From contig CAYWJO010000060.1 of the NCBI GenBank assembly GCA_964458565.1, positions 1-18,205 on the forward strand: a DNA stretch of 18,205 bases, given 5' to 3'. The notes below the pieces were generated by a model. It had not been told where the DNA came from and ran no database searches. It was given only the letters and a program-made list of their open reading frames with translations. Of this stretch, positions 1,278 to 18,148 are shown piece by piece (the stretch's first letter is position 1; the number at the start of each line of letters is the position of its first letter). The position numbers and the translations under genes were made by a program. Origin of the DNA: an uncultured archaeon (GTDB taxonomy: Archaea; Asgardarchaeota; Thorarchaeia; Thorarchaeales; Thorarchaeaceae).

Positions 1278-2975
1278 GTGTCAAAGATGAGCTATAAGAC
1301 CTCTCGAATCTACGACTTCAAGCCCCTTGAGACCACATTCGATTTCAGCACACTTGTGAATGAATCCATACATGCCCTTTCAGCATTCAATACTTCACAA
1401 CAAGCTGAAGGCTACATCGGATGTGATCTTATCCTCATCTATCCCGACCTCAACATGGTTGATAGTAGTAAGGGTGGATGGTCCGACAGAGTGGAACGAC
1501 TCACCGAAAAGATTCACAAGCGGTTCAGTGATGTGGACTGGGAATTGACCACACTAAGAGGTAACATGTTCAACGTCCTCGATTTCAGACATGACCTCTT
1601 TCCGCACAAGATAACAACTGCCGTGCGAAAGGGGAAATATCAACTCCAGCGGAGTATCCAGATTTCTGTCCCATTACGAGAGTCGTTTCTCTCAACCACA
1701 CTCATTCTCCGGATGTTACTTCAGATGATCACTCCTGATTGGTTTCAGTATGCTGACAGTGCTAGACTTCGTACATGGACTCTAACTCCAGACGGTACTA
1801 ACGAAGTGGTCGTCCATGACGACACTGCCAAGAGAGTTTCGTGGCAATACTGGTTATGGATTGATAATTACAGTGAAGCAATGGAGTACTTCAGAACAGA
1901 AGGTGTGGCAAAACTTGTCGCTGATGAGTGTCGTGGATACTTCATGAACGCTGACAAGGCTGAGTTTGGTGAGAGGAGGGTGAGAAGATACCTCTATCCT
2001 GATGGAAAAAAGACAGTTCTCTCTGTAAACACAGCAGATGATGTAATCCAGCTTGTGGAAGATGAGAACTTCCATGCCTTCTATTCATCAAGTGAGAGAT
2101 TGGACGGGACACTGGGAAAGGTCTGCCTTGATATAGATGCAAGGTGGATGCTCTCAACAATCTTAGGTCCTGATGAGACATGGAACTTCGAGTGTGCCTT
2201 AGTGGATGCATTTCTTGCTATGGCTTTCAGGTTAGGATTACCAATTCCTGCGATTAAGTTCTCTGGAGCCAGAGGTATTCATGTCTACTGGCTTATCGAA
2301 CCTGATGCCATCGATGCTGAATGGATTGACATTGAACCCTATGTTGAGACCATGTTCAGAGTTGATAGGCTGATCGACAAGAAGAAGACCACCGAAGAGT
2401 TCCTTCGCCCATTTCAAGGGATGAAAACGCTGCTTCAGGCTTTTGTACTAGCAAGTAAGAACCGGTTGATGGACTGGTCGCGAATCAACCTGACAAAGAA
2501 CACTCTGGCAGCAATGGGTATTCAACATCCAACTCAATTGGTCACAATGGGTGGAATGGAGGACAGGTACATGGCAAAGATTGCAGTGGATGTTCTCTCT
2601 CAGCGAAAAGGGGTCTTCAGGTCGATAATGAGTCCACACTACAAGTCTGGTCTTGTATCTAGGAATATTAGGAATGAACTCGGTCAAATAGGGACACAAT
2701 TCAGAGTGTGGTATAATATGAGGCAGTTGGCTAGTATCAGACAAGCGATGAACGATATGCTCATGGAACCTACTCAGCTATGTCCAGATCCAGGCACACT
2801 CGACAAGGTTCATCTCACACAGATGGCTGATACGCTGAGGTCAGAGGTGTATATGGTAGTAAAGTTCTCACCTGCTAGTGCCTCAAAGATACTTCCAGAG
2901 TATTATGAAAAATACAGATTCAAATACTCCCACCAAGCCAATATTGACACCTCACCAACCGTTCCGAATATTTAA
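1278..2975 (+). CDS. Archaeo-eukaryotic primase (AEP) superfamily primase-polymerase, LigD polymerase-like, with a ~200-aa N-terminal extension
   Basis: Motif I KVCLDID (DxD), motif II KFSGARGIHVY (SGxxGxH) and motif III AVD...VFRSIMSPHYKSG. The segment before motif I (VLSVNTADDVIQLV...FYSSSERLDG) resembles LigD-type Prim-Pols. Start is GTG 1278 or ATG 1287. Confidence 0.85.
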   Translation: MSKMSYKTSRIYDFKPLETTFDFSTLVNESIHALSAFNTSQQAEGYIGCDLILIYPDLNMVDSSKGGWSDRVERLTEKIHKRFSDVDWELTTLRGNMFNVLDFRHDLFPHKITTAVRKGKYQLQRSIQISVPLRESFLSTTLILRMLLQMITPDWFQYADSARLRTWTLTPDGTNEVVVHDDTAKRVSWQYWLWIDNYSEAMEYFRTEGVAKLVADECRGYFMNADKAEFGERRVRRYLYPDGKKTVLSVNTADDVIQLVEDENFHAFYSSSERLDGTLGKVCLDIDARWMLSTILGPDETWNFECALVDAFLAMAFRLGLPIPAIKFSGARGIHVYWLIEPDAIDAEWIDIEPYVETMFRVDRLIDKKKTTEEFLRPFQGMKTLLQAFVLASKNRLMDWSRINLTKNTLAAMGIQHPTQLVTMGGMEDRYMAKIAVDVLSQRKGVFRSIMSPHYKSGLVSRNIRNELGQIGTQFRVWYNMRQLASIRQAMNDMLMEPTQLCPDPGTLDKVHLTQMADTLRSEVYMVVKFSPASASKILPEYYEKYRFKYSHQANIDTSPTVPNI

Positions 2976-3170: not shown

Positions 3171-4040
3171 TTAAAGTGGTGCGCCGCAATTAATACAGGT
3201 TGTTCTACCCTGTTCGTTTCTGTGATTGCAGCTTGGACATACTATGAGATAGACAACTCTAAAATCTGGACTCTCAGGTAGTTCCACAATTGCTTCGAGA
3301 CCAAAGTCGGGGTCCTTGCAGACATAGATCATCTCATCTTCGATTATTGTGTCGTCTTCAGACATATGATTACGAGAAATCTGTGCTACAGCTGGAAGAC
3401 GTATACCTAGAACCTTAGCAACCTCACCAAGTGGGGTTCTTAGTCTAGAGTTAACTATATCCAGAACAAGTTTTTCCCAACCCTCACGGATTCCTCTATT
3501 CAATACCGAAAGGGCAAAGAACTCAGGTAGTGCTATGTTGCATCTAGCCAATACCCACCAATCAACTCGCTCATCTCTATCTATGTCTTTATCAGCCCTT
3601 CTAAACCATACATCTCCGTCATTCATTTCCTTGTCCATGCAATTTCTGTGATCATCCCACACTCCACCATACTTCCTAAGGAAAGCATAGGAAAATCCCA
3701 TTGTATCTGACATTTCCCAGAACCATTGATATTTCCTGATTTCTTCTTCATCATACCATTCATGATAAAATGGTGGATATCCCTCATTCTTCAGATTCTT
3801 GAATGTGTAGAAACAAGGCTCATACTCTCCTGAACACATCCTTCTTTTCAGAATTTCTTCAAGATCATTTTCTTTCAATCCAGATAACCTACGATTTGCA
3901 TGAATCAAATGCTCCTCTAGATATCCATCATTCGGATTATCGATGAACTCTCTTATGCAATTCCTCTCCCCATCAAGGAATTGTTTCTCTATTTGTCGAA
4001 GTTCATTCATCAACGACCTCAGTTTCTCTGGCGAACTCAT
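3171..4040 (-). CDS. Hypothetical protein with a possible HTH segment and C-terminal zinc ribbon
   Basis: C-terminal CPSC-x10-CINCG zinc-ribbon pattern. TPLGEVAKVLGIRLPAVAQI is HTH-like. A purine-rich GGGAG lies upstream of the ATG on the minus strand. Confidence 0.75.
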   Translation of the reverse strand: MSSPEKLRSLMNELRQIEKQFLDGERNCIREFIDNPNDGYLEEHLIHANRRLSGLKENDLEEILKRRMCSGEYEPCFYTFKNLKNEGYPPFYHEWYDEEEIRKYQWFWEMSDTMGFSYAFLRKYGGVWDDHRNCMDKEMNDGDVWFRRADKDIDRDERVDWWVLARCNIALPEFFALSVLNRGIREGWEKLVLDIVNSRLRTPLGEVAKVLGIRLPAVAQISRNHMSEDDTIIEDEMIYVCKDPDFGLEAIVELPESPDFRVVYLIVCPSCNHRNEQGRTTCINCGAPL

Positions 4041-4831: not shown

Positions 4832-6058
4832 ATGAAACGATGGATAATTGTAAGTATAATCCTTGTTCAGATGCTTGTCATGATGTCTATAACTACCTCA
4901 AGTATAATTGAATCAAGACACAGTAGTATTCTCGATGATAATCATCTATCTGTGGACTATATCCCACATGACCCAATTCTCATCATGTCGGATAGCGATC
5001 TCATCAATCAAAGTTGGCTAGGGATGGGAACTAAAGAACAACCATACGTTTTGGAAGGAATGAGTATCAATGGAAGTGGAGACCTTCCATGTATTAAAAT
5101 TGGAGAAACTAGTGCCTATTTTGAAATCAGGAATTGCTATCTATTCGGAGCTAATGTCATCGATTCAATGAGTCCTGATAGGTCAGCAATTTATTTAGCA
5201 AGATCACTGCCTACCAAAATAATTGATTGTAAGATTGAAGACTGCTATTATGGTATTTATTGTATATCCGAAGGGAGTACAGATGATTCCTTAATTATTG
5301 GAAATACGATATCAAGTGATGCCGAGAACATTAACATTGATGGAAGGACATGGAATTTCATCATATCAGACAATGTCGGTACAGGGACTCTTTCTGTTGA
5401 GTGGCCAAGAGATTGTGTAATCTCTGGAAACCATTTTAATGAGGTAGTAATTAACGGAAGAGAGACTGAACAAAGTTCTGCACTTATCAAAAATAACGTT
5501 GTGGCTCAACTTGATGTTCTTGATAGCACAGACTTTCATGTGGATGAATATATCATACACAACAACACTATAACATTCAGATTAAGAATACGTGAAACTA
5601 ATTGGTGTAATGTAACATATAATGACATCTTTGGAAAGACCCTCATTCTTGATGCTCACAATAACTCATTCACATGGAATATCTTTGATGATGAGATTTC
5701 TCAGAGCGATGAAGAACAAGACAACAGTTTCGATTATAATTGGTATTTCGACTATCAAGGAATCGATGCAGATCAAAATGGTATCGGGGACACTCCATAC
5801 GAAATATCTGACGCAATCGATATGCACCCCTTAATGGGTCTTCGTGGATTCTCCCATAATCGAACAACCAGTTCAACTGTATCTATCACATCATCATCAA
5901 ATACAACCTCCACAATATCAACAACACGTCATACTGAAATCAGTACTGTAGATATGACGCCAGACAGGTTTTTTGAAGCGATATATGTGATACTTGTGAT
6001 CGGTATTCCTGTATTATCCATCTTGATTGTTTTCATTGTCATTATGAGAAGAAGATGA
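4832..6058 (+). CDS. Membrane-anchored right-handed parallel beta-helix (NosD/CASH-like) surface protein
   Basis: N-terminal signal peptide (MKRWIIVSIILVQMLV), the GMGTKEQPYVLEG and FEIRNC segments, Asn-ladder repeats (IIGNTI, ISGNHF, IKNNV, IHNNTI), a YNW..DY.G.D..NGIGDTPY...D.HPL cap, a Ser/Thr-rich stalk, and a C-terminal TM helix ending in RRR. Confidence 0.88.
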   Translation: MKRWIIVSIILVQMLVMMSITTSSIIESRHSSILDDNHLSVDYIPHDPILIMSDSDLINQSWLGMGTKEQPYVLEGMSINGSGDLPCIKIGETSAYFEIRNCYLFGANVIDSMSPDRSAIYLARSLPTKIIDCKIEDCYYGIYCISEGSTDDSLIIGNTISSDAENINIDGRTWNFIISDNVGTGTLSVEWPRDCVISGNHFNEVVINGRETEQSSALIKNNVVAQLDVLDSTDFHVDEYIIHNNTITFRLRIRETNWCNVTYNDIFGKTLILDAHNNSFTWNIFDDEISQSDEEQDNSFDYNWYFDYQGIDADQNGIGDTPYEISDAIDMHPLMGLRGFSHNRTTSSTVSITSSSNTTSTISTTRHTEISTVDMTPDRFFEAIYVILVIGIPVLSILIVFIVIMRRR

Positions 6059-8202: not shown

Positions 8203-8213
8203 TTCACCACCAG

Positions 8214-8260
8214 TTGTCATTGACAGCTCAAACTAAGTTTCAACATTGTCATTGACAGCT
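8214..8260. promoter_or_regulatory. Tandem palindromic operator array upstream of the membrane/ATPase operon
   Basis: Exact 15-bp direct repeat TTGTCATTGACAGCT at 8214-8228 and 8246-8260 (32-bp period). Each copy contains the palindrome TGTCA-t-TGACA, and the palindrome AAACT-a-AGTTT lies between them at 8230-8240. Confidence 0.7.
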
Positions 8261-8342
8261 ATATTCATTTACAATGACAACTTTTCTCTCACCGCATACT
8301 TATGTAATAATTCAGGAACATCATCTTCAGGTGATACCTAAG

Positions 8343-8657
8343 ATGGTGTTTGATATCGTCCAATTCTTGCTGGGTCCTGCAGAGATTCTGACTCAGGGCA
8401 TAACTGGTCTCATTATGGGTCTTGGTCTGAATGCTCTGCAGATCTGGCTAATGTATGAAATTGTGGTCATTGTACCACCACGAGCAAAGAATCTCATTGA
8501 TGTGATTGACATGGAACTCGGTCAATTACAGTACTCAGGTGGAATGAAGTATCGAGTATATTCAGCAGTCCTGCAAGTGTTCCTTCCACTAATTTTAATC
8601 AGTGTCTGTTACCTCTCATTCTGTCTATTCACAGGTACTGTATCGAGTCTGTTCTGA
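8343..8657 (+). CDS. Small (104 aa) two-TM membrane protein, pilin/VirB2/CedA1-sized; first gene of the operon
   Basis: ATG 8343 is preferred over 8274 because AGGTGA (8329-8334) precedes it and an AT-rich TATA-like stretch lies at ~8298-8311. Two hydrophobic segments: GITGLIMGLGLNALQIWLMYEIVVIV and VLQVFLPLILISVCYLSFCLF. Confidence 0.7.
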   Translation: MVFDIVQFLLGPAEILTQGITGLIMGLGLNALQIWLMYEIVVIVPPRAKNLIDVIDMELGQLQYSGGMKYRVYSAVLQVFLPLILISVCYLSFCLFTGTVSSLF

Positions 8658-8674
8658 GGGTGTGAGGGGAGGTC

Positions 8675-9319
8675 ATGAATGGAATAGATTGGAGAATCGG
8701 TCTAACTATTTTGATGTTGTGTATAGTAGGAGATAGTTTACCTATTTGCATCGCTGAGAGTGTAGAGAGTCCCTCTTGCATCATCCTAGCAATTCCCAAT
8801 GAAACTTATGTTCTATCTCTTGAATCGATTGATACTGAGGCAACATTCGAAATCAGTCTGACCTTTGACCGGTTTCTGGATTCATCAGATCGATTGGAGG
8901 TAATTGGTGAGTTTGATATTGTCCAAGACACATGGAATACTAATTTCTACTACATCCTTTCCTCCGGTGAAATTTTGTGCACAATACAATTCAAGGGCAT
9001 TGAGAATGTCTATCTAGGTGAGGAACGTTCCAGGCTTGAAATAACCAGCTCTGACTACTTCGTCCATTTGAGGCACATACAAATGGAAACTACACCGGAT
9101 GCTTATGACATATCTCCAGCATTCCAGATAGTGTTGGCGTTGTGCAGCCTGATCCCCTTCTTTCTTCTCACTCCCGATACAGTTGAAGAACTTCAAGAGA
9201 TACTTGAGATTGATATGCAGACTCGGGGAGTCTATGGAAGAATTCTAGTCATTCTCCTACCTCTCCTCTCGATTGCAATAACCGTTCTACTTCTTGAGAG
9301 TCTGACTGTGGTGGTATAG
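8675..9319 (+). CDS. Membrane protein with signal peptide, beta-rich ectodomain and two C-terminal TM helices
   Basis: G-rich RBS (GAGGGGAGGT) just upstream. Hydrophobic N-terminus, alternating polar/hydrophobic strands, and TMs AFQIVLALCSLIPFFLL and ILVILLPLLSIAITVLLL. Confidence 0.8.
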   Translation: MNGIDWRIGLTILMLCIVGDSLPICIAESVESPSCIILAIPNETYVLSLESIDTEATFEISLTFDRFLDSSDRLEVIGEFDIVQDTWNTNFYYILSSGEILCTIQFKGIENVYLGEERSRLEITSSDYFVHLRHIQMETTPDAYDISPAFQIVLALCSLIPFFLLTPDTVEELQEILEIDMQTRGVYGRILVILLPLLSIAITVLLLESLTVVV

Positions 9320-9321
9320 AA

Positions 9322-10119
9322 ATGCAGGAAGAAAAGGAACCCACAAGCCCCCTCTCTGAATATTATCGTAGAAAAGCGAACAGAGCCTATGTGAAATACA
9401 ATCCTCGAAACACAGAGTGGCATAGTTCTGGGGCATCACTAAGAGGATGGATTGAGAGACTAGGGTTTGTGACAGATATGCCTTTCAAGTCTATAGCTCT
9501 CTTTGTCGGGTGTTGGATTACACTGGAGATTGGTTGGCCTCTTCTTGTTGTCCTTGGAGTGACTACAGCTGGTTCGGTATGGAGTGTTCCAAGTGCAATT
9601 CCTTGTATGTTCATTATCGTATATGGACTGCTGATGACTGGAGCAGTCAACATGGTAAGGGGATTGATAGTTCATTTTTCTATGAAACGTGATAACTTGG
9701 TCAAAGCACTCTTTCGCGGATACTTTTGGAGTCTACTCTCAATAGGTTTGATTGTGCTGATACACACTTATTTCCACACAAATCTACCTCAAATGTTCAT
9801 CCTTCCAATATTGTACCTACTACCTATTGATGTTGCAGGGACAACACTACCAATCCCAATTCCCCTAGGAATTACCGGCCTCTATATGGATCTCATAATT
9901 ACTATACTTGTCTATGTTGTGGGTATCATAGGGAGTTGTGTTGGTGGTCTAGAGATCATCAAATACTTGAATGAGAGCTCAAAAAGGAATGGGAGTTATG
10001 GAGCTATTCTCTCTGTACTTATACTGGCTACATTTCCTGCATTCAATATCTGTTTCTCTCTCGTCTTTCTTAATACCACACTTGATCTTATAGGGAGGTT
10101 ACTTTCAATTGCAGTCTGA
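9322..10119 (+). CDS. Polytopic membrane protein (about 5-6 TM; CedA/VirB6-like or Yip1-like topology)
   Basis: Starts 2 nt after the previous stop. Soluble ~55-aa N-terminus followed by 5-6 hydrophobic segments. Confidence 0.8.
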   Translation: MQEEKEPTSPLSEYYRRKANRAYVKYNPRNTEWHSSGASLRGWIERLGFVTDMPFKSIALFVGCWITLEIGWPLLVVLGVTTAGSVWSVPSAIPCMFIIVYGLLMTGAVNMVRGLIVHFSMKRDNLVKALFRGYFWSLLSIGLIVLIHTYFHTNLPQMFILPILYLLPIDVAGTTLPIPIPLGITGLYMDLIITILVYVVGIIGSCVGGLEIIKYLNESSKRNGSYGAILSVLILATFPAFNICFSLVFLNTTLDLIGRLLSIAV

Positions 10120-12913
10120 AATTGTGAATATTCTAGATATTGCTATCAACTTGATTATCATAATCGGAGCTAGCATTCTAACAATGACTCTGACTCATAT
10201 CCTGCTGTCTGTGAGAAGTAATCGGTTTGCTACCGAAATCTGCTGCGCTCTTGGTTTTGGAGTCTATATAATTCTGGATATTCTTCTTGGCACATTTGAG
10301 ATGTATCGGATTCTGATTGCGTTTTTCATCCTCACTCCAGTCATGATTATTGAGGTTGTACGACCATCAACGGAAACCGGATCCAACTCTATTCAATTAG
10401 TCGAATCTGTGGAAGGTGGGATTCCTGAAGATGCTCTCTGTTTTTCATGGAAAAGGGGATTCTTGGCAATCACAGCATTAGAAGGAACCGGATTTCCCTT
10501 TTCGAATCAAGTATCTCATAAAGAACCCGATTCGGATTCATCTCTCAAAAGCCTCTACCCACTTTGGATTGCTGGTGAGAGAACAAAAACTGTCTATACA
10601 ATTGAAATAACACTTCAGAATGGACTTGCTAGATATTACCTATATCTCATCAATCACCACAAAAATTACTCAACAGCGTTGGAAAATGTGCGAAAGGCAA
10701 GACATACTGCTACCAGGTGGTTTGAAGAGTGGAACTACGAGTTTAAAATTCTTGATTCTAGGCAGCTTTGGAAAAACTACAAGAGTATACAACTTGAAGA
10801 AACCGATTCTTCTCTGGATCATACAAACGGTCCAGATGTAATTACAATTACAGAATTTCCAACTGAGTGTGCAGATGATTTGAGTGGACTAGTGAACTCT
10901 CTTCTTGATGCAAAGATGATTGGTAGACTTCAAATCTCATTCAAATCCATGAAGAGCCCTATTCTGAAGTACTCGACACCTGAATCGTCAGATCAGAATG
11001 ATACGAAAGTTCCTTTCAAAGTTGAGGACCATCATCTCCGTGATATCTACAAACAGATTGCTGAAATCGAGGCTTGTGAGGAAACTGGGGCCTTCAAATG
11101 CAATATTTTGGCAATATCAGAAACTGAGTCAGACGAGATATTCAGTGTAATTCAAAGCATCTGGCCGGAAACTGATGTATCTAAAATTCCCAAGAAGTAT
11201 CTTAGAAGAACATGGGATTCTATCCAAACGCGTCAATACTTTGTGAGCAAGTCTAACACAATTAGTGGTGCTACTTTGTCAGCACTTTTACAAATGAGTG
11301 AACCTGTTCCAGGTCTTCCAAATCGGATTGTACCACCTAAATTCGCACTTCCAAGACATAATCTGATTGACGACCATTCTGTTCAGGTTGGTAGAGTTTT
11401 GAATAGTGGGAAAATCACTGAACAAGACTACACGATTCCTGTCAATGCTTTTTGTTTCCATACCGGTATCTATGGGAATCCTGGTAGTGGCAAAACTAAC
11501 ACTGCAATGCATATCGTAACTCAGCTGGCTGAGAGGGAGATCCCATTTCTTATCATAAGTCCTGCAAAGACTGAGTGGAGACAGCTACTAAATCTTCTTT
11601 CAGATGTTAGAATATTCACAGTTGGTGATGAGCAAGTTGCACCGTTTCGATATAACTTCCTCATTCCTCCACCTAATGTTTCTATTAACACCCATATCAA
11701 CAATATAGCAGACTGCTTCATAGCAAGCTGGCCAAGTGAGGGTATCATTACTGAACATATAATCAAGATATTCAGACGAGCTTATGATAACGCCGGCTGG
11801 AATCGACTCACTAACGAACGTGGCGAACCTATTCTCATCTCGGATCTTTATACTGCCATGGAGCAAGTATCGTCCGAGTTGAGCTACGGTCGGTTACAAC
11901 AGGATTTCATTGGGGCTCACAAGTCACGATTTGGCTCACTCTTGGATGATGTAGTAATGGCTGTGACTCTGAATACTGAACACGGTCTCACAATACCTGA
12001 GTTGCTTGAACACAGAACAGTCATTGAAATACGGAACATGAACTCCTCACAGGTTTCACTCATCACCAGTCTGATCACAGTTGCAGTTGCAGAGTATCTT
12101 GAGTCGCAACCACAGGGATTCGAACAAGAGATGAAGCATCTCCTTGTATTAGAGGAGGCTCATCATGTACTAAAACGATCCACAACTTCATTAAGCATCA
12201 ATGAAGGACACTCCAGTAAACAGATGGCAATAGACACAATCGTGAATCTACTTAGAGAAGCACGAGGGCTAGGGCTAGGACTCATTCTAATAGACCAGCT
12301 GCCTGGGGAGATGGCTGATACCGCAGTGAAACTCCCCGGAATCACTATTATCCATCAGATAAAAGACCCACGTGAACGTGTATTAGTAGGAACTCAGGCA
12401 GATCTAAATAAGGAGCAGATCTCACACATTGGATCTTTGAATATTGGCGAGGTGATAGTCCACCGGAATCTTGACCTTCATTCTAACTTTGCAGTAAACT
12501 GTCAGGTTTCTCACTGTTTCGACAGTGGCAGGCATTGGAAAAATGAGGATATCGTTGAAGCAATGGATTCCTACTACAAGGAACGGCCGTACTTATTGAT
12601 TCAGCTTCTTCCTTCTACTATGCAGTGGGAGCCTGACCCTCATATATTGAGGAAACTATTACTTCTAACAGAGTCACTTAATTTTCTCAAGAACTTCAAG
12701 GCATGTCTAGTCCTCAATCATGATACTGCTGCCAGTGCATATGTCCGAGAAGTTGTTGAAACTATGGTCCAACAACCAACCGAAATTGATCTATATACGA
12801 CATTGATTTTTCCAGTCCTCGTGAGGAATATGAGGGGGGAAGCTGAGAGCACTTTGAAATGGAACGAAATTATGGATAGCAAAGATTCCAAGGGGGTAGA
12901 GGGTCATGGATAA
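10109..12913 (+). CDS. Membrane-anchored HerA/FtsK/VirB4-superfamily ATPase
   Basis: Three N-terminal TM helices. HTGIYGNPGSGKT Walker A (11474-11497), LLVLEEAH Walker B (EEAH 12152-12163), and REARGLGLGLILIDQLP (arginine finger / sensor-Gln motif of this superfamily). TTG start supported by GGAGGT at 10094-10099. Overlaps the upstream gene by 11 nt. Confidence 0.9.
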   Translation: MQSEIVNILDIAINLIIIIGASILTMTLTHILLSVRSNRFATEICCALGFGVYIILDILLGTFEMYRILIAFFILTPVMIIEVVRPSTETGSNSIQLVESVEGGIPEDALCFSWKRGFLAITALEGTGFPFSNQVSHKEPDSDSSLKSLYPLWIAGERTKTVYTIEITLQNGLARYYLYLINHHKNYSTALENVRKARHTATRWFEEWNYEFKILDSRQLWKNYKSIQLEETDSSLDHTNGPDVITITEFPTECADDLSGLVNSLLDAKMIGRLQISFKSMKSPILKYSTPESSDQNDTKVPFKVEDHHLRDIYKQIAEIEACEETGAFKCNILAISETESDEIFSVIQSIWPETDVSKIPKKYLRRTWDSIQTRQYFVSKSNTISGATLSALLQMSEPVPGLPNRIVPPKFALPRHNLIDDHSVQVGRVLNSGKITEQDYTIPVNAFCFHTGIYGNPGSGKTNTAMHIVTQLAEREIPFLIISPAKTEWRQLLNLLSDVRIFTVGDEQVAPFRYNFLIPPPNVSINTHINNIADCFIASWPSEGIITEHIIKIFRRAYDNAGWNRLTNERGEPILISDLYTAMEQVSSELSYGRLQQDFIGAHKSRFGSLLDDVVMAVTLNTEHGLTIPELLEHRTVIEIRNMNSSQVSLITSLITVAVAEYLESQPQGFEQEMKHLLVLEEAHHVLKRSTTSLSINEGHSSKQMAIDTIVNLLREARGLGLGLILIDQLPGEMADTAVKLPGITIIHQIKDPRERVLVGTQADLNKEQISHIGSLNIGEVIVHRNLDLHSNFAVNCQVSHCFDSGRHWKNEDIVEAMDSYYKERPYLLIQLLPSTMQWEPDPHILRKLLLLTESLNFLKNFKACLVLNHDTAASAYVREVVETMVQQPTEIDLYTTLIFPVLVRNMRGEAESTLKWNEIMDSKDSKGVEGHG

Positions 12914-15900
12914 GAACATCGAAGAGTTCGATTCAGCTATCTCTGAGATTAAGAGAGAGCTTGACGAAACTGATCAATCAATAATTCAGGAAGTAGATGA
13001 GATAGTCCAAGAGATTGACAACGCTATATTCTCCGAGGATGAACGCGAACAAATCATCACCAAGTGTAATAAGGAGTCATCAACACTACAAAAGATCCAG
13101 GAAGACATTGAATTCTTCTTGGGAGAAGATTACACTTGTGAGGATATTGATGCATTTGTCGCATCAATTCATCGATTTGATACTAATGACATAAAAACGA
13201 ACCCAGTTGCTTTTCAGTACAATACAAACATAGACCATATTCTACAAATGATAGATGGAATACAAAACACCCATCATCTCTCAAAATGGAGCACTCAGGT
13301 TTTATCTAAAGGATATGATAGAGCTCTTCATTCTAGTAGACAAAAGTACTCAACACTAGATGTTTTTCTACATACATTGAGTCGAATTTATCTTGAAGAT
13401 AGAGGACATCAATCTTGGAATCTTGAAGACTTCTTTAATAATGCCAAAAATCTTCTGAACTCCACTTCTAATGACAAATTCGTGAGCTTGTCGAAATTTC
13501 TAGATCAACTAACTTATTCCACAATTGATGAGGTAATAAACTCACTAACCAGAGATTCCTGGAAAGGACTCTATTGCGATTTGATAAGCGATCTATCAAC
13601 CGAATATGGTGATTTTTCCGATGTTATTCGAGTAGCATTCAATTCTCTTTTACAAGACACTTCGAATCTTGCATTATCTCCTTTCCTTGTTGAATCTCCA
13701 TCTTTAGATGTAATACGTGCAAGATATCTAGATGAACTATATGTAGTATTAACCGAATTTCGAAGATATACTTCAAAAACACAAAAACAAAAAATCGCAT
13801 ATATCCCCTTAATACTTGGATCTTCACATCCAACAATTTGGACCAATGAGGAGGTTTTTCTTCATCCTAAAGCGAATAAATCAACACGTATGAAACTAGA
13901 ACAAGGTATTCTCTCACGTCCTCTAATTTTACAGGTTGCAATAGATTCTACAGCAACTAAACTAGAAATCCTGCAAACAATGATGCTTGATGAGAATAAA
14001 TGGAATATGTTCAAGAAATTATATGAAACAGAAGGTGATATCTCTTTCTCATCAGCTTGGAAATACATCAAATCACATTTACTCTTATTTCCTCTAACAA
14101 AGGAGAAAGCTCCCACATCCAAAACACCTCTTAGTCACTGGTCACCAGAATTCCGAGAAGCAGCATTATTATTCTCATTTTTTCTTAAAGGAAACAAGAA
14201 GAACTCCGGGCCATATCTTGATGTAGCGTTGCGTCATCTTATACATGGCTCTGCTGAAATACCAATTAGTTGTGGAATTGTCCAGGGGAAGGGGAGATAC
14301 TACCATATATCACACAATTTACAGATAGACAATTCAACTAATCCTTTTTGGGTTCCATATTTTGTACCATTTAACAGATCTTCATCTAGCTTCAACCGTA
14401 TTGAGAGTGCTCTAAGGGGAATATCTGCTGAATTTCTCCAATACGCACGAGATAATTCACCTTTAATAAAATGGAATCTAGTTCGTTTCGGTGAAGATGA
14501 AAACAGTAAGACTAGAAAGGATAAGACACATAATCAAGAATCTAATGATGTGTTTGAGTCCTCCTATGTTGAAATCGAAGGCACCCTAGATTCAATTCAG
14601 GACAACAAATCCATATTATCATATGCAGAGATGTTATGCAAATACTTGACCAATGATATTGTAGAACTAATAAACTCCAGTCCAAAAGATGTCATTGGGA
14701 GATCTCGATTAGCACCGAGTGCAAACCCTCATGGAAATGACTTTATTGAATATCAAGAGAGGTTCCTTGGAAGAGATGCAGTGGTTCTTTCTATTTTGGA
14801 CTCGATAGCTAGTGTACTCGAGTACTTTGGTGTGCGAATCCCTGAGAAAGGTGGTTTATCTGGTGAGAAAGTGGTATGTGTTAAATCACTCAACCATGCA
14901 ACCACAAAAAAAACACTAACAATCAAAGATACCGGAGTTCAAATGCGCATAACCGACTCTATTGAGAAGAATCGTCCATCAACTACGACTTTTTCATCAC
15001 AAAAGGAAAGATGGCAAGAAATACCATTTACTCATGTTGAGATTGTTTTAGATGATGGAACAACTAAATCATATCCTCTCCTTGCAGTTTTCGCAATTAG
15101 TAATACTGCTTACAAGATTATTCCATATCCAGAGTTGTTATGGGACATTGATAACATGCTCCTCGAAATAGGAGATAAAGAACTTCTTTATAAACTCAAT
15201 AAATTGAGAAACAAAGCTGATTGGTCCTCAGCTTCAGAATTGATTATATCCTTTCTAACGGAGCACTACATATTTTCAGAGAAAACTACAAATCTTAGCC
15301 AAGGGTTCAAGAACCTAATTCTTGAAATCGATCCACTTCGAATCACAAAACATATTGTGAATTACAATTGCATAGCAAAAGAAGCTCTGTTTACAGCCCA
15401 AATGCGTAAGTATTCAGAACAAGGAATTCCTTTGACAATAGATACTTCTTGGTTTCCTCATTCTATTGAATGTCTTTCTGGATATCTTGCTCAAGTTTTC
15501 GGAGGAATACTATGTAAACGCGAGCTCGAAAATGTTGCTGATGCATTAGAAATGTTCGGAGAAGGCGAACTCAAGTTCAATATTGTAGCAGTGTTTCCTT
15601 CAAAGAACACGGGAAAAGACCCCAATACCACAAGTGCAGATGCTTGGGTTTTACTTTGGCGTCAACATCAGTACGACATTACCGATAAAAGAGTGCTGAA
15701 GATTATGTACAAAGCAAAGACAGAACAAGCATTGTTTTGGTCCGATTTCGCTGAATTAAATTCCGCCTTGTCTATAGAAAAGCATAGTGAATCCATACCC
15801 GTACTTGGCGTTTTGGATATATCATCTAAATCCGAATGTGGACAACTAGCTATTAGAAGAACAACTCGATTGAATCAACCCCATCTAGATATAGAAAGAC

Positions 15901-16169
15901 ATACATCCATGTTTGATATTTGGATTCGTCGAATTTCCAAATGGATTGATAGCTCAATTCTACTATCTGGATCTACTAGCATATCTAAAGACAATCTTGA
16001 ATTAAAAAGAAAATTCACATTTTGCAATGATGAATCATTTACGGTTGCACACAATCTTAGCAGTAATATTACTAACCTAAAGGAGCGGCTCCATCGTACA
16101 GGTTTCATGTATAGGCAAATTGAACACTTCAAAGAAGTTCTCATTCAATTAGATTCGAAGAATCGTTAG
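12906..16169 (+). CDS. Large (1087 aa) hypothetical protein with an acidic helical N-terminus and a possible degenerate PD-(D/E)xK fold near the C-terminus
   Basis: Long uninterrupted ORF overlapping the ATPase stop by 8 nt. N-terminus is an acidic amphipathic helix (MDKNIEEFDSAISEIKRELDE...). No TM or signal peptide seen. TSADAWVLL...LKIMYKAK lies at ~15630-15720. Confidence 0.8.
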   Translation: MDKNIEEFDSAISEIKRELDETDQSIIQEVDEIVQEIDNAIFSEDEREQIITKCNKESSTLQKIQEDIEFFLGEDYTCEDIDAFVASIHRFDTNDIKTNPVAFQYNTNIDHILQMIDGIQNTHHLSKWSTQVLSKGYDRALHSSRQKYSTLDVFLHTLSRIYLEDRGHQSWNLEDFFNNAKNLLNSTSNDKFVSLSKFLDQLTYSTIDEVINSLTRDSWKGLYCDLISDLSTEYGDFSDVIRVAFNSLLQDTSNLALSPFLVESPSLDVIRARYLDELYVVLTEFRRYTSKTQKQKIAYIPLILGSSHPTIWTNEEVFLHPKANKSTRMKLEQGILSRPLILQVAIDSTATKLEILQTMMLDENKWNMFKKLYETEGDISFSSAWKYIKSHLLLFPLTKEKAPTSKTPLSHWSPEFREAALLFSFFLKGNKKNSGPYLDVALRHLIHGSAEIPISCGIVQGKGRYYHISHNLQIDNSTNPFWVPYFVPFNRSSSSFNRIESALRGISAEFLQYARDNSPLIKWNLVRFGEDENSKTRKDKTHNQESNDVFESSYVEIEGTLDSIQDNKSILSYAEMLCKYLTNDIVELINSSPKDVIGRSRLAPSANPHGNDFIEYQERFLGRDAVVLSILDSIASVLEYFGVRIPEKGGLSGEKVVCVKSLNHATTKKTLTIKDTGVQMRITDSIEKNRPSTTTFSSQKERWQEIPFTHVEIVLDDGTTKSYPLLAVFAISNTAYKIIPYPELLWDIDNMLLEIGDKELLYKLNKLRNKADWSSASELIISFLTEHYIFSEKTTNLSQGFKNLILEIDPLRITKHIVNYNCIAKEALFTAQMRKYSEQGIPLTIDTSWFPHSIECLSGYLAQVFGGILCKRELENVADALEMFGEGELKFNIVAVFPSKNTGKDPNTTSADAWVLLWRQHQYDITDKRVLKIMYKAKTEQALFWSDFAELNSALSIEKHSESIPVLGVLDISSKSECGQLAIRRTTRLNQPHLDIERHTSMFDIWIRRISKWIDSSILLSGSTSISKDNLELKRKFTFCNDESFTVAHNLSSNITNLKERLHRTGFMYRQIEHFKEVLIQLDSKNR

Positions 16170-16220: not shown

Positions 16221-16386
16221 GGGGCGGTGGCCTAGTCAGATATTTGGAATTCTCAAATATTCTGGAACGGTATGGCGACGGGCTCCAGATCTAGATTCAT
16301 CTCGAATCTAAAACTGTAGGGTCAACAAAGGCCGTCTGCCAGGCGAAACTCGTCGATCGTGGGTTCGAATCCCATCCGCCCCACCA
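16221..16386 (+). tRNA. trnW: tRNA-Trp(CCA) with two introns: D-loop intron 16238-16267 (position 17/17a) and anticodon intron 16289-16347 (37/38); encoded 3' CCA
   Basis: Acceptor stem GGGGCGG/CCGCCCC + A + CCA. D arm GCCT-AGTC|CGGTA-TGGC after splicing. Anticodon stem ACGGG/CTCGT with loop CT-CCA-G|A (CCA at 16285-16287). T arm GTGGG-TTCGAAT-CCCAT. Confidence 0.93.
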
Positions 16387-16432
16387 TACTAGCTAGATTT
16401 CAAGTGAATTATCAATAATCTACACAGTTAGC

Positions 16433-18148
16433 ATGTATTCGAGAAGGAGGGAATCAAAACTGGATATTCATCCGTTATTATTGCGTGAAATCAATGATAG
16501 GAAGGTTTTCCCTTTTATAGGTGCTGGCTTCTCATTGAATGCGAAGCTGCCCGCTAATCAGAGAATGCCTAATTGGAACACTTTGGTCAATGAAATGGCA
16601 TCTCAAATAGGAGCGCCATCTGATTTTGGACATATGGAGATTGCCTCTTTGTATATAGAGGAAAATGGAAGACGAGCAATGGTAGAATTTCTGCGGAATA
16701 AACTACATCACCAAACAGCAGAACCCGGTGAAGTCCACAAATCACTCGTGAAACTATCATTTCCGATTATGTAAACTACGAACTTTGATACATTATTAGA
16801 AGATGCTTGTAGATTAACAATAGGGCCAGCAAACGTGATAAAGAATTGTGATGATCTTTCGTTGGACATCCCACCACATTCCACAAGGATTGTAAAGATG
16901 CATGGTTGTCTCAATGCTCCAAATAACATAGTGATATCTGTCCAGGATTATGATGAATACCTTAGTAAAAATCCCATATTTGTTACTCATCTTGCGAATC
17001 TCTTCATTACACGAACGCCGTTATTTGTTGGATATAGTAGGAGAGATCCACACTTTAGACACATTAGATGGTTAGTTCGGCAGCAATTAGGAAGTTTTGC
17101 TAGACAAGCATTTCTTGTGAACCCAAATATGAGCGAATGGGAAGAAAAAATTCTTAGAGCGGATGGAATCACTCCAATCAATTTACCATTAGAACAAGGT
17201 GAACAGTATGGAGAGGTACTGAAAATTTACTTTGATAGAGTATCTGAAGAATTAGAAAAGAGTGGAGCAATAGAAAGCGTTAGGAAGGAGAGCCATCATG
17301 AAGAACATGGTGATGACGAGGACTCAAAGAAACTGATTCAGCAAGCCTCACCAGATACAATCTCATCAATTCTAATTGCTACTTCTAACTACTGTTACGT
17401 ATCAGGATCAGAAGACGAATCAGAAAAACTTGTTGAAAAAATAATCAAGCCATCAATTGACGATATGGGTTTTGATATTAAATACCCAAGTTCATTTGTT
17501 TCATCCATTGATGAAATTAGGATTTTGATACAACAAGCAAAACTTGTAATCGCGATTATCAAAACAGAAAACAAAGCAACAGCATACGACACAGGAATTG
17601 CGGTAATGCTAAAGAAGCCCTTGGTAATAGTTGCAATGAAAGGGATTAGATTAGATAGTTTGCTACCCAAAGATGTTTACGATGCCATAAAAGCAAATCG
17701 AATACCAGTAGTTCGAGTATCCACAATCTTCAAGCCAAGTAAACTAATAGACGAGATTTCAAAGGCAGTAAAACAAGTGTTTGCTCCATTTAGCTTGCTG
17801 GGAATTGAAAGAGAGTTGGACGAACAGAATTATCTTGATGTGACTCTCCGTTTGGTAATAGTACTAGACTTCCTGATAAGAAGCCTTGGGAAAAAGCATG
17901 ATATTATCCAAAAAAGAGTTGATGTCTTTCCAAAAATAGTACACAAATTACAGCGGTTGGACATTATTACTCATGATGAGTTAGAAAGTCTTCTATGGGC
18001 AAGAAAACTGAGAAACGGGATAATACACAATAACAAAATACCAAGCGAAGAAAGCACTAGAAGGTTGATGGAATTCTCAAAACAATTCATTGAAACTCAT
18101 TTTCAAGATAACTACTCGGAAATTATTATTCAAAAACAAGAGATTTGA
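16433..18148 (+). pseudogene. SIR2-family (SIR2_2) NADase fused to an NDT/TIR-like domain and a HEPN domain, interrupted by one in-frame TAA at 16772-16774
   Basis: ORFs 16433..16774 and 16835..18148 are in the same frame and read FIGAGFS...MPNW...FPIM*TTNFDTLLEDA...KMHG...LFVGYSRRDP. The middle domain is IIKPSI...IQQAKLVIA...YDTGIAVMLKKPLVIV. The C-terminus has RNGIIH (Rx4H) at 18011-18028. Confidence 0.85.

Follow-up and report, generated by a model that had tools for sequence, protein, structure and literature searches.

A conserved operon with a membrane-anchored HerA/VirB4-clade ATPase and an exchangeable tagged fifth gene as a candidate translocation machine in Thorarchaeota

Do three membrane proteins, a membrane-anchored ATPase and a giant partner protein form a transport machine in an Asgard archaeon? 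Asgard archaea are the closest prokaryotic relatives of eukaryotes. To our knowledge, no dedicated protein- or DNA-export system has been described in them, and little is known of how they exchange DNA or fight competitors and viruses. We analyzed an 18,205-nt stretch (the window) of contig CAYWJO010000060.1 from an uncultured Thorarchaeaceae archaeon, in which the ORF list places five plus-strand genes, A to E, at positions 8343-16169. With four conserved proteins, a defined tag and a natural diversity of cassettes, this operon is a compact candidate for such a machine.

Gene A (8343-8657) encodes a two-TM hairpin membrane protein of 104 aa. Its longest ORF begins at 8274, and the start was set at 8343 because all homologues in the alignment begin at that Met. 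The product of gene B (8675-9319, 214 aa) has an ectodomain between a signal-like N-terminus and a C-terminal hairpin of two helices. Gene C (9322-10119, 265 aa) encodes a polytopic membrane protein, and gene D (10109-12913, 934 aa, TTG start) a membrane-anchored HerA/VirB4-clade ATPase. The last gene, E (12906-16169, 1087 aa), consists of a tag (12906-13124) and a body (13125-16169). A and B are 17 nt apart and B and C 2 nt, while C overlaps D by 11 nt and D overlaps E by 8 nt, exactly as given in the first-pass annotation. Hydropathy likewise reproduced its topologies, with two TM helices in A, six in C (five or six had been proposed) and three in D, and a soluble E except for one weak hydrophobic stretch. 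B showed the described ectodomain and a signal-like N-terminal helix, and two C-terminal TM helices, unmentioned before, were added by hydropathy. When every window ORF of 100 aa or more was scanned with Pfam, none matched NurA, Mre11, Rad50, relaxase or integrase, whose absence had been noted earlier.

Upstream of A, two 15-bp direct repeats of the inverted-repeat operator GTTGTCATTGACAGC lie on the plus strand at 8213-8227 and 8245-8259. Sites of this type occur three times in the whole genome, and two of these are the pair upstream of A. The pair forms the left edge of the conserved block, as DNA homology to locus L033 starts exactly at 8213. In most related loci that were checked, lineage-specific repeats precede the start of A by about 128 and 96 nt, and some loci have a third copy. 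The plus-strand segment 8298-8334 is a putative promoter and ribosome-binding region, judging from a TATA-like box rich in A/T (about 8300-8312) and, closer to the ATG at 8343, GGTGA (8330-8334). In other loci, similar TTTAAGTAAA/TTATGTAATAA-type boxes and GGTGA or TGTGA were found at an equal distance from A.

The operators, genes A to D and the first 73 codons of E constitute one block, which is 74% identical at the DNA level to the nearest relative, L033, over 4,975 nt (window 8213-13124). All related loci of sufficient length have A-B-C-D in this order; they come from one Hermodarchaeota genome and from Thorarchaeota. In most loci measured, the start/stop overlaps of C with D and of D with E were kept. 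The operon is therefore real, and its gene order recurs far beyond chance. The membrane genes are conserved beside orthologous ATPases, and no described conjugative or Ced module matched the locus gene for gene, so that neither outcome named in advance as refuting the proposal was observed. No paper describing the operon was found in the literature. It occurs only patchily, in 12 of 400 Asgard genomes (about 3%), and genome G029 contains a decayed copy. In most loci, a giant signal-peptide/TM-anchored Ig-like surface protein and a KaiC-like/HTH trio are encoded beside the core; in the source genome, both are located on a different contig, C70. No recombination genes were linked to the core in the window ORFs or related loci, and no relaxase or coupling protein (VirD4/TraG) was present among the window ORFs or the called genes of related loci. 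Locus L067 has BREX and an integrase as neighbors. Together with the patchiness and the SIR2 pseudogene in the window, these BREX neighbors fit defence islands, which speaks against translocation.

A is the most conserved component, with a mean column identity of 84% in the alignment of its homologues. These form 59 clusters, mostly of about 104 aa, and 58 of the 59 are at least 53% identical. A basic loop connects the two TM helices. A had no match in Pfam, NCBIfam, PADLOC, PHROG or PDB and no sequence similarity to PDB pilins, and from its sequence it is pilin-like in size and predicted topology only; the predicted N-out/C-out arrangement resembles that of conjugative pilins. In B, an ectodomain of about 115 aa lies between the signal-like N-terminal helix and the C-terminal hairpin. 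The alignments of A and B matched each other over 42 columns in hhalign (E 3.6e-5, probability 71%), a match that takes in the loop and last helix, and the HMM of A matched B-like proteins of loci L066 and L067. The C-terminal hairpin of B is thus probably a paralogue of A. No PDB or protein-family match was obtained for B. C combines its six helices with a beta-hairpin at residues 162-184 (structure model pLDDT 75), and only nine representatives were found among 1.84 billion proteins. Its sequence matched neither VirB6/CedA/TedA nor other families in Pfam and NCBIfam, and its fold searches (Foldseek E > 0.1, VIA-wide best Z 8.2, atlas TM at most 0.36) gave no match, although helical membrane folds are poorly resolved by such searches. 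Judged by these searches, A, B and C are three novel membrane proteins with no known relatives outside their own family.

In D, the TM helices fall within residues 1-85. An alpha/beta N-domain spans about residues 96-415 and is followed by the ATPase domain at about 416-830; residues 831-934 form a variable helical C-domain. Walker A (G456-T463, nt 11474-11497) and Walker B (L678-E683, nt 12140-12157) are intact, as reported earlier, and are invariant in the alignment of 27 homologues. D scored 30.7 bits against Pfam DUF87 (PF01935; cut-off 23.2), which together with the intact motifs places it in the HerA clade, and its PDB profile matches were almost all HerA-type proteins (best 1.4e-13). 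In the structure model (pLDDT 80.8), the VIA-align Z scores of the ATPase domain were 33.4 for DndH-C (DndH/DptH-C), 31 for VirB4, 27 for HerA, 26 for TrwB and 18 for FtsK, so its fold is VirB4-like but equally DndH- and HerA-like. Foldseek aligned D with full-length TrwK/VirB4 over about 900 columns. D is therefore an intact HerA/VirB4-clade ATPase with a single ATPase domain and three N-terminal membrane helices.

Membership of D in the VirB4, CedD or FtsK families was considered and rejected. The Pfam models CagE_TrbE_VirB, AAA_10 and FtsK (PF01580) gave no match at E <=0.1. CedD (NF053655) was the best named NCBIfam match, behind one uncharacterised family, at 57 bits and 1.4e-15; its cut-off is 600 and only the Walker regions were aligned. 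The NCBIfam antiphage HerA model scored 26 bits (cut-off 800), and the best PADLOC matches were mad8 (4e-12) and defence HerA models. A tblastn search of D against 72,556 plasmids returned 42 records, and the 15 listed were all annotated only as DUF87 or ATP-binding. These missed thresholds and plasmid annotations count against translocation. The nearest relatives of D outside Asgard archaea are soluble bacterial ATPases, whose genes adjoin an HNH endonuclease, dynamin-like genes or DUF2357. These neighborhoods look like defence and are likewise unfavorable to translocation.

The leader encoded by the first 73 codons of E is acidic and helical, carries the motif L-[ST]-E-[DE]-E-R-x-x-I-[IV] and is the only portion of E in common with relatives. 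Its N-terminus is 53% identical to the first 98 aa of the L033 fifth gene and 31% identical over 87 aa to that of L041, and DNA homology to L033 ends at 13124, directly after codon 73. The tag occurs once in the source genome. Across loci, the fifth-gene products combine this constant tag with unrelated bodies of 403-1367 aa; the tag is common to products of 403, 445, 471, 764, 788, 1087 and 1135 aa. Behind it, relatives encode an HTH array and an HNH or LAGLIDADG-like nuclease. In the E of this window, HTH and nuclease motifs were absent. Its body of about 1,014 residues (G+C 0.36, compared with 0.415 in the core) had no homologue among 5.8 billion clusters and no match in the atlas, Pfam or PDB, and no PADLOC defence model matched E. 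The label of giant orphan therefore holds for the body and fails for the whole protein, because the first 73 or so residues are a family tag. A constant N-terminal region joined to unrelated C-terminal modules is the layout of polymorphic effectors, and the constant four-gene core with a variable fifth gene is the pattern that the first-pass annotation had named as favoring effector export. Although exchangeable, the fifth gene remains coupled to D in all cases. No immunity gene directly follows E, where a tRNA gene starts after 52 nt, and none was seen after the fifth gene of L037, where, as in L033, a serine hydroxymethyltransferase gene comes next.

Among known systems, the DNA importers Ced of Sulfolobales (CedA/CedA1/CedA2/CedB/CedD) and Ted of Thermoproteales (TedA/B/C) are similar in their parts (PMC9905601, PMC11868833). 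Like the operon, they combine a HerA/VirB4-clade ATPase with a polytopic membrane protein and a small protein of two TM helices, and have no outer-membrane parts list. CedD and D both have TM segment(s), an N-domain and a C-terminal HerA-like ATPase domain. The components have diverged too far to be recognized by sequence, and the resemblance is only architectural, as had been claimed. The operon also has B, a probable A-paralogue with an ectodomain, and a partner gene that is tagged and exchangeable, and it is patchy whereas Ced/Ted are lineage-wide. One reading would nevertheless make it a Ced/Ted-like importer of chromosomal DNA, with A as a CedA1/VirB2-like pilin, C as a CedA/VirB6-like pore, D as a CedB/CedD-like motor and E as a DNA-processing accessory. 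The equal parts list, the CedD match and shared layout, the long TrwK/VirB4 alignment and the pilin-like predicted topology of A are consistent with it, and HTH-array nucleases could prepare DNA. However, CedD membership falls far below its cut-off, neither sequence nor fold searches linked A to VirB2/CedA1 or C to VirB6/CedA, and recombination genes are not linked. Import conserved for repair would also be unexpected in so few genomes or with a hypervariable partner. We regard this reading as improbable. The missing VirB2/CedA1 and VirB6/CedA links weigh against translocation too.

The Gram-positive-type T4SS of pCF10 has an adhesin (PrgB), a VirB6-like PrgH, a VirB4-like PrgJ and a relaxase with a translocation signal. 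The operon is comparable in its surface adhesin gene near membrane proteins and a VirB4-fold ATPase, and in the sequence-specific nucleases of its relatives, whose tag may act as the recognition signal. Unlike conjugative T4SS, it has no Pfam VirB4, coupling protein, relaxase or conserved replication/integration genes, it is not self-transmissible, and its tag is N-terminal and acidic. Type VIIb secretion uses the EssC motor and LXG polymorphic toxins. It is similar in combining a membrane-anchored FtsK-HerA-superfamily ATPase and small membrane partners with downstream polymorphic proteins, which have a constant helical N-terminus and variable, often nuclease, C-termini. In contrast, D has one HerA/VirB4-clade ATPase domain instead of the three FtsK-type domains of EssC, and the operon lacks an FHA domain, a WXG100 protein, an immunity gene and a PF01580 match. 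The earlier T4SS/Ced-like or type VII-like assignment is thus retained for the conserved core and varying fifth gene, and dropped for VirB4/CedD/FtsK membership, while a VirB6-like fold of C is not supported.

The analysis establishes the conserved architecture, the class of the ATPase and its intact motifs, the relationship of A to B, the tag with its exchanged cassettes, and the operator repeats. From these, we read the operon as a tag-directed translocation machine, T4SS/T7SS-like in logic and outside those families, with a probability of about 0.45. A divergent or remote HTH regulator would act on the paired operators. The membrane part would consist of A as a small, probably oligomeric hairpin subunit, B as an A-like hairpin with an external domain, and polytopic C, and the motor would be D, a ring ATPase held at the membrane by three helices. 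The fifth-gene product may dock to D through its acidic N-terminal tag of about 73 residues and be handed to or through the membrane complex. HTH-array nuclease cassettes would carry bound DNA along, and the target would be neighboring cells or DNA.

All TM-anchored ATPases of the FtsK-HerA superfamily known to us (FtsK/SpoIIIE, TraB, VirD4, EssC, CedB/CedD) are membrane translocases, so the membrane anchoring of D and its VirB4/HerA/DndH-like domain support translocation. CedB and CedD are documented as such ATPases (PMC11868833). The A-B-C-D order with its kept overlaps also argues for this reading, as do the external domain of B and the hairpin it shares with A, a layout of major and decorated subunits. 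The constant tag on unrelated bodies is as in the substrate families of secretion systems, and the Ig-like surface proteins and KaiC-like/HTH trio near most cores point the same way. Furthermore, the relatives' cassettes are sequence-reading nucleases, parallel to relaxases, which are nucleases bearing a translocation signal. The missing immunity genes are awkward for secreted nuclease toxins. If the operon translocates, a membrane transport machine would have arisen independently on the HerA/VirB4 scaffold, which would bear on the origin of T4SS, Ced and T7SS motors. Its boldest version, a first dedicated Asgard effector-export system of a new HerA-clade secretion class whose portable acidic tag delivers interchangeable sequence-specific nucleases or nuclease-bound DNA into neighboring cells through adhesin contact, appears doubtful.

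Defence remains a strong rival to translocation because outside Asgard archaea the closest relatives of D are soluble ATPases encoded beside nucleases in defence-like contexts. In such a membrane-sited system against viruses or plasmids, D would assemble with E as a tagged nuclease or effector, while A, B and C would hold it at the membrane and detect invasion, as in Zorya or Kiwa, with no export. The PADLOC matches and the DndH/DptH-C fold of D, the hypervariable, nuclease-bearing fifth genes of relatives and the patchy, partly decayed distribution agree with this, as do the many paralogous pairs of an ATPase and a large variable partner in Thorarchaeota, the SIR2 pseudogene, and BREX and the integrase near L067. 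HerA-effector systems (SIR2-HerA, DUF4297-HerA), HerA-NurA and DndH/DptH also share a HerA central domain above the Pfam cut-off and include the closest PDB sequences and folds. The close coupling of the ATPase to a partner gene is shared as well, and in the operon's relatives these partners are nucleases. However, known HerA-effector complexes are soluble, with ATPases of about 500-700 aa, whereas D has 934 aa, three TM helices, an extra N-domain of about 320 aa and three membrane-protein partners, and the operon's partner carries a portable tag and is replaced wholesale. Defence leaves unaccounted for three dedicated membrane proteins, one with an external domain and another, A, more conserved than the ATPase, as well as the linkage to a giant adhesin; A, B, C and E match no known defence family. 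We consider a defence role less likely than translocation; it would make the operon the first membrane-embedded HerA-nuclease system. Membership in HerA-effector defence as described was rejected, given the antiphage-HerA score, the membrane anchoring of D, the unmatched E and a separate SIR2 gene, broken by a stop codon and located downstream of E past the tRNA gene. Under either the translocation or the defence reading, the tag of about 73 residues is a molecular handle and A an unusually conserved small membrane protein.

The genes might also form no single functional unit. In that case, homing-endonuclease-type genes (HNH, LAGLIDADG) acting as selfish elements, and other cassettes, would have entered repeatedly at the 3' end of a membrane ATPase operon to which they are unrelated, leaving the tag as an insertion scar. 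The homing-endonuclease-type domains among the cassettes, the abrupt homology break past codon 73, the lower G+C of E and the tRNA gene after it, tRNA genes being common integration sites, would fit such insertions. We hold this for very unlikely, because the tag is read in frame, shows protein-level conservation across distant loci and keeps its overlap with the D stop, which argues for selection on a coupled, tagged product.

The analysis establishes that the operon is regulated and encodes a membrane complex whose HerA/VirB4-clade motor is intact, and that its exchangeable partners carry a portable tag. The window is the entire 18.2-kb contig out of a 3.7-Mb Thorarchaeota assembly. ORF calls placed the five genes A (8343-8657), B (8675-9319), C (9322-10119), D (10109-12913, with a TTG start) and E (12906-16169) where the first-pass annotation had put them, with gaps of 17 and 2 nt and overlaps of 11 and 8 nt. 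Hydropathy profiles bore out the two TM helices of A and the three N-terminal helices of D, and gave six TM helices for C, for which five or six had been proposed. B had been described as a signal-peptide protein with an ectodomain; the signal-like helix was confirmed, and two C-terminal TM helices that the description lacked were found besides. The reported absence of NurA, Mre11, Rad50, relaxase and integrase from the window held in Pfam searches of its ORFs.

The core genes A, B, C and D were found in the same order and orientation in all loci long enough to show them. A constant four-gene core with a variable fifth gene, one of the outcomes foreseen for a collection of homologous loci, was observed in these loci. 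In the alignments A had the highest mean column identity (84%), ahead of C (60%), D (53%) and B (51%). Two distant loci, in which C is merely 27% identical, retain A-like, B-like, C and D genes, and C-D is present on a Hermodarchaeota contig. D orthologues of about 900-960 aa occur in many Thorarchaeota metagenomes, with 43-78% identity over residues 400-934, the part searched. The window and its nearest relative, locus L033, share a single uninterrupted DNA block (window 8213-13124, 74% identity), which runs from the first operator repeat through the first 73 codons of E; the flanks are unrelated on both sides, and the 8 kb that precede A in the window have no relation to any other locus. C was detected in 12 of 400 Asgard genomes, including 9 of the 85 in its own family and one each in two other families (among them the Hermodarchaeota genome G057), and has nine representatives in total among 1.84 billion proteins. 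The copy in genome G029 carries stop codons. The system is accessory.

The ATPase D matched the HerA central domain alone in Pfam (30.7 bits against a cut-off of 23.2). In NCBIfam, the best model was an uncharacterised 'serine-rich' family (1.5e-26), followed by CedD (1.4e-15, 57 bits against a cut-off of 600) and then the HerA models, while mad8 and HerA models matched in PADLOC. PDB matches of a 27-sequence D profile were almost exclusively HerA-type proteins. In the AlphaFold model of D (pLDDT 80.8), three TM helices lead into an alpha/beta N-domain, which is followed by the ATPase domain and then by a helical C-domain. The ATPase domain was compared by VIA-align, and was closest to the C-domain of DndH/DptH (Z 33.4), followed by the C-domain of VirB4 (Z 31), HerA (Z 27), TrwB (Z 26) and FtsK (Z 18); the class of D was assigned from the family-model scores and this fold ranking. 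The best Foldseek matches of D were full-length TrwK/VirB4 proteins, with about 900 columns aligned (E 4.5e-16), and VIA-align superposed about 600 residues at a high rmsd. The TrwK alignment and the VIA-align result hint that the N-domain may also be VirB4-like. A VirB4-like N-domain has been reported for CedB and CedD (PMC11868833). Conservation is highest in the ATPase domain (55% mean identity to the window D), with 30-35% in the TM, N- and C-domains.

No matches to A, B or C were obtained in Pfam, NCBIfam, PADLOC, PHROGs or the PDB sequences. A falls into 59 clusters, mostly of about 104 aa; in 58, identity to the window A is at least 53%, even where C is at 27%. With deeper alignments, hhalign detected similarity between A and B, covering the loop plus the second helix in A and the loop plus the last helix in B (probability 71%, E 3.6e-5), and a G-x-Y-x-R ... 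LPL pattern is common to both. B accordingly resembles a hairpin of the A type that bears an external domain. No such relationship was found between A and C. From the positive-inside rule we infer that the hairpins of A and B would place their loop in the cytoplasm and both termini outside, as conjugative pilins do in the membrane. The model of C (pLDDT 75) shows six helices and a beta-hairpin; no fold match rose above noise in PDB Foldseek, VIA-wide or atlas searches, VirB6 did not stand out, and a protein-atlas feature search with C gave no lead.

In every complete locus a coupled gene lies 3' of D, and in two loci an additional gene sits between D and the tagged gene. The products have unrelated bodies (403-1367 aa), and their common part is an acidic N-terminal leader with the motif L-[ST]-E-[DE]-E-R-x-x-I-[IV], the tag. 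In L033, L034 and L037 the tag is followed by four to six sigma-70-region-4-like HTH repeats (40-70 bits) and a C-terminal HNH module (CxxC...H-K-K-D-G...N...CxxCH...H), and in L048 the HTH repeats precede a LAGLIDADG-like motif. By these motifs, the tagged proteins of the relatives are predicted DNA enzymes. The tag of E, which occurs once in this genome, is 53% identical to that of L033; the proteins align to about residue 100, and DNA homology ends after codon 73. The remaining approximately 1,014 residues of E are orphan, with a G+C content below that of the core. No homologue of this body was found among 5.8 billion clusters, E gave no family, PDB or atlas lead, and neither an HTH nor a nuclease motif was found in it. 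No immunity-like ORF follows E in the window, where a two-intron tRNA gene begins 52 nt downstream.

Large variable proteins also follow the paralogous ATPases of other Thorarchaeota in most loci, whether or not these ATPases have TM helices, and a protein of about 200 aa often comes next. HTH arrays occur in some of these large partners and a LAGLIDADG_3 domain (31.5 bits) in one. HMMs of A, B and C found no relatives beside these ATPases. The paralogous module, a HerA-like ATPase of 852-1180 aa with a large variable protein, is widespread in other Thorarchaeota (loci L013-L032), where each genome has several copies; small two-TM ORFs frequently lie close by, and none of its partners could be assigned to a named family.

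The inverted repeat GTTGTCATTGACAGC is present in two copies 5' of A, 32 bp apart. Most related loci checked have their own lineage-specific repeat, in two or three copies at matching distances from the start of A, and an A/T-rich box and GGTGA follow it. The window motif occurs three times in total in the whole genome. The sole other near-match (contig C5, 74501-74515, minus strand, one mismatch) lies beside a gene for a 505-aa HerA-like protein, on a contig that also has a 1255-aa VirB4-like gene; one extra site is about the chance expectation. At nearly all of the other loci, three further genes flank the operon. This trio encodes a winged-helix protein of about 177 aa (HTH177), a protein of about 203 aa with no family match and a KaiC-like ATPase with a single domain. 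Often these loci also encode a giant Ig-like surface protein, which has a signal peptide and is anchored at its C-terminus. In this genome trio and adhesin are intact yet on a separate contig (C70, 4275-10382, minus strand), in an operon for the 1424-aa adhesin, HTH177, the 203-aa protein and the KaiC-like ATPase; this trio is 65-80% identical to that of L033.

The nearest relatives of D outside Asgard archaea are bacterial, mostly about 900-1050 aa and about 25-31% identical, and nearly all are without N-terminal TM helices. In the plasmid contexts, the relative on Lactococcus pB26B has an HNH endonuclease gene directly downstream and two dynamin-family genes upstream; that of Photobacterium is preceded by a gene for a DUF2357 protein, with Csm6 close by; that of Oscillatoria lies with FHA and pilin-like genes. 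No mating-pore annotation occurs among the plasmid matches listed for D. The Oscillatoria cluster (L047, 4526-12273), with FHA/YscD-like, TPR and Pilin_GH-domain proteins, may be a different, uncharacterised machine.

The tag would direct swappable partner proteins to translocation by the membrane complex, a reading to which we give a probability of about 0.45. Translocation is favoured because every TM-anchored member of the superfamily of D is, to our knowledge, a translocase, because the layout around D combines a polytopic protein with two hairpin proteins, one small and one decorated with an external domain, and because the adhesin linkage and the tagged, swappable partners resemble secretion and conjugation systems. 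Relaxases are sequence-specific nucleases with a recognition signal, and the putative sequence-specific nucleases of the relatives, carrying the tag, are similar to them. The strongest rival, somewhat less probable, is a membrane-sited defence system; the soluble bacterial relatives in defence-like contexts, the HerA- and DndH-like fold of D, the partners that are nucleases, the missing immunity genes, the patchy distribution and the island-like neighbours speak for it.

DNA import of the Ced type is improbable: the parts list fits, but the variability of the partners and the distribution do not, and no feature of Ced membership could be established. Still less probable is that the fifth gene is a 'selfish cassette', against which stand the conservation of the tag at the protein level and the retained overlap with D. 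A virus packaging module was rejected, with no capsid or portal genes, two unannotated matches in the phage collection and chromosomal housekeeping genes in the flanks of the relatives. No published description of the system turned up in full-text searches combining Asgard or Thorarchaeota with conjugative elements, VirB4 or HerA. Newly described here are the repeats at the operator, how A relates to B, where exactly the conserved block begins and ends, and the frequency of 12 in 400; new as well are the soluble bacterial relatives of D beside nucleases, the orphan cassette of the window and the window's lost adjacency to trio and adhesin.

The tRNA gene downstream of E (16222-16388, plus strand) combines a perfect acceptor stem of 7 bp with a T-arm and an encoded CCA; its two introns caused both ARAGORN and Rfam to miss it. 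After trial removal of a D-loop insert of about 29-30 nt, ARAGORN called tRNA-Trp(CCA) with a 59-nt anticodon-loop intron. The SIR2_2 (ThsA/Dsr2-like) gene that follows (16433-18148, plus strand) is interrupted by one in-frame TAA (16772-16774) immediately ahead of a conserved T-T-N-x-D motif, and is a pseudogene or an assembly error. A SIR2-HerA pairing of this gene with D was rejected: it lies beyond the tRNA gene, is interrupted by the stop and is absent from all related loci.

Upstream of the operon, a 565-aa ORF (1278-2975, plus strand) has an archaeo-eukaryotic-primase-like motif, S-G-A-R-G-I-H-V-Y-W, and matched no family in Pfam, PHROG or NCBIfam. This ORF and a gene for a zinc-ribbon protein (3171-4040, minus strand) suggest that these 8 kb are an inserted mobile element. 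A 408-aa surface protein with a signal peptide and TM anchor (4832-6058) has homologues near paralogous HerA-like ATPases in other Thorarchaeota, and so do the ORFs at 2-553 and 3171-4040 (loci L022, L023, L026 and L016).
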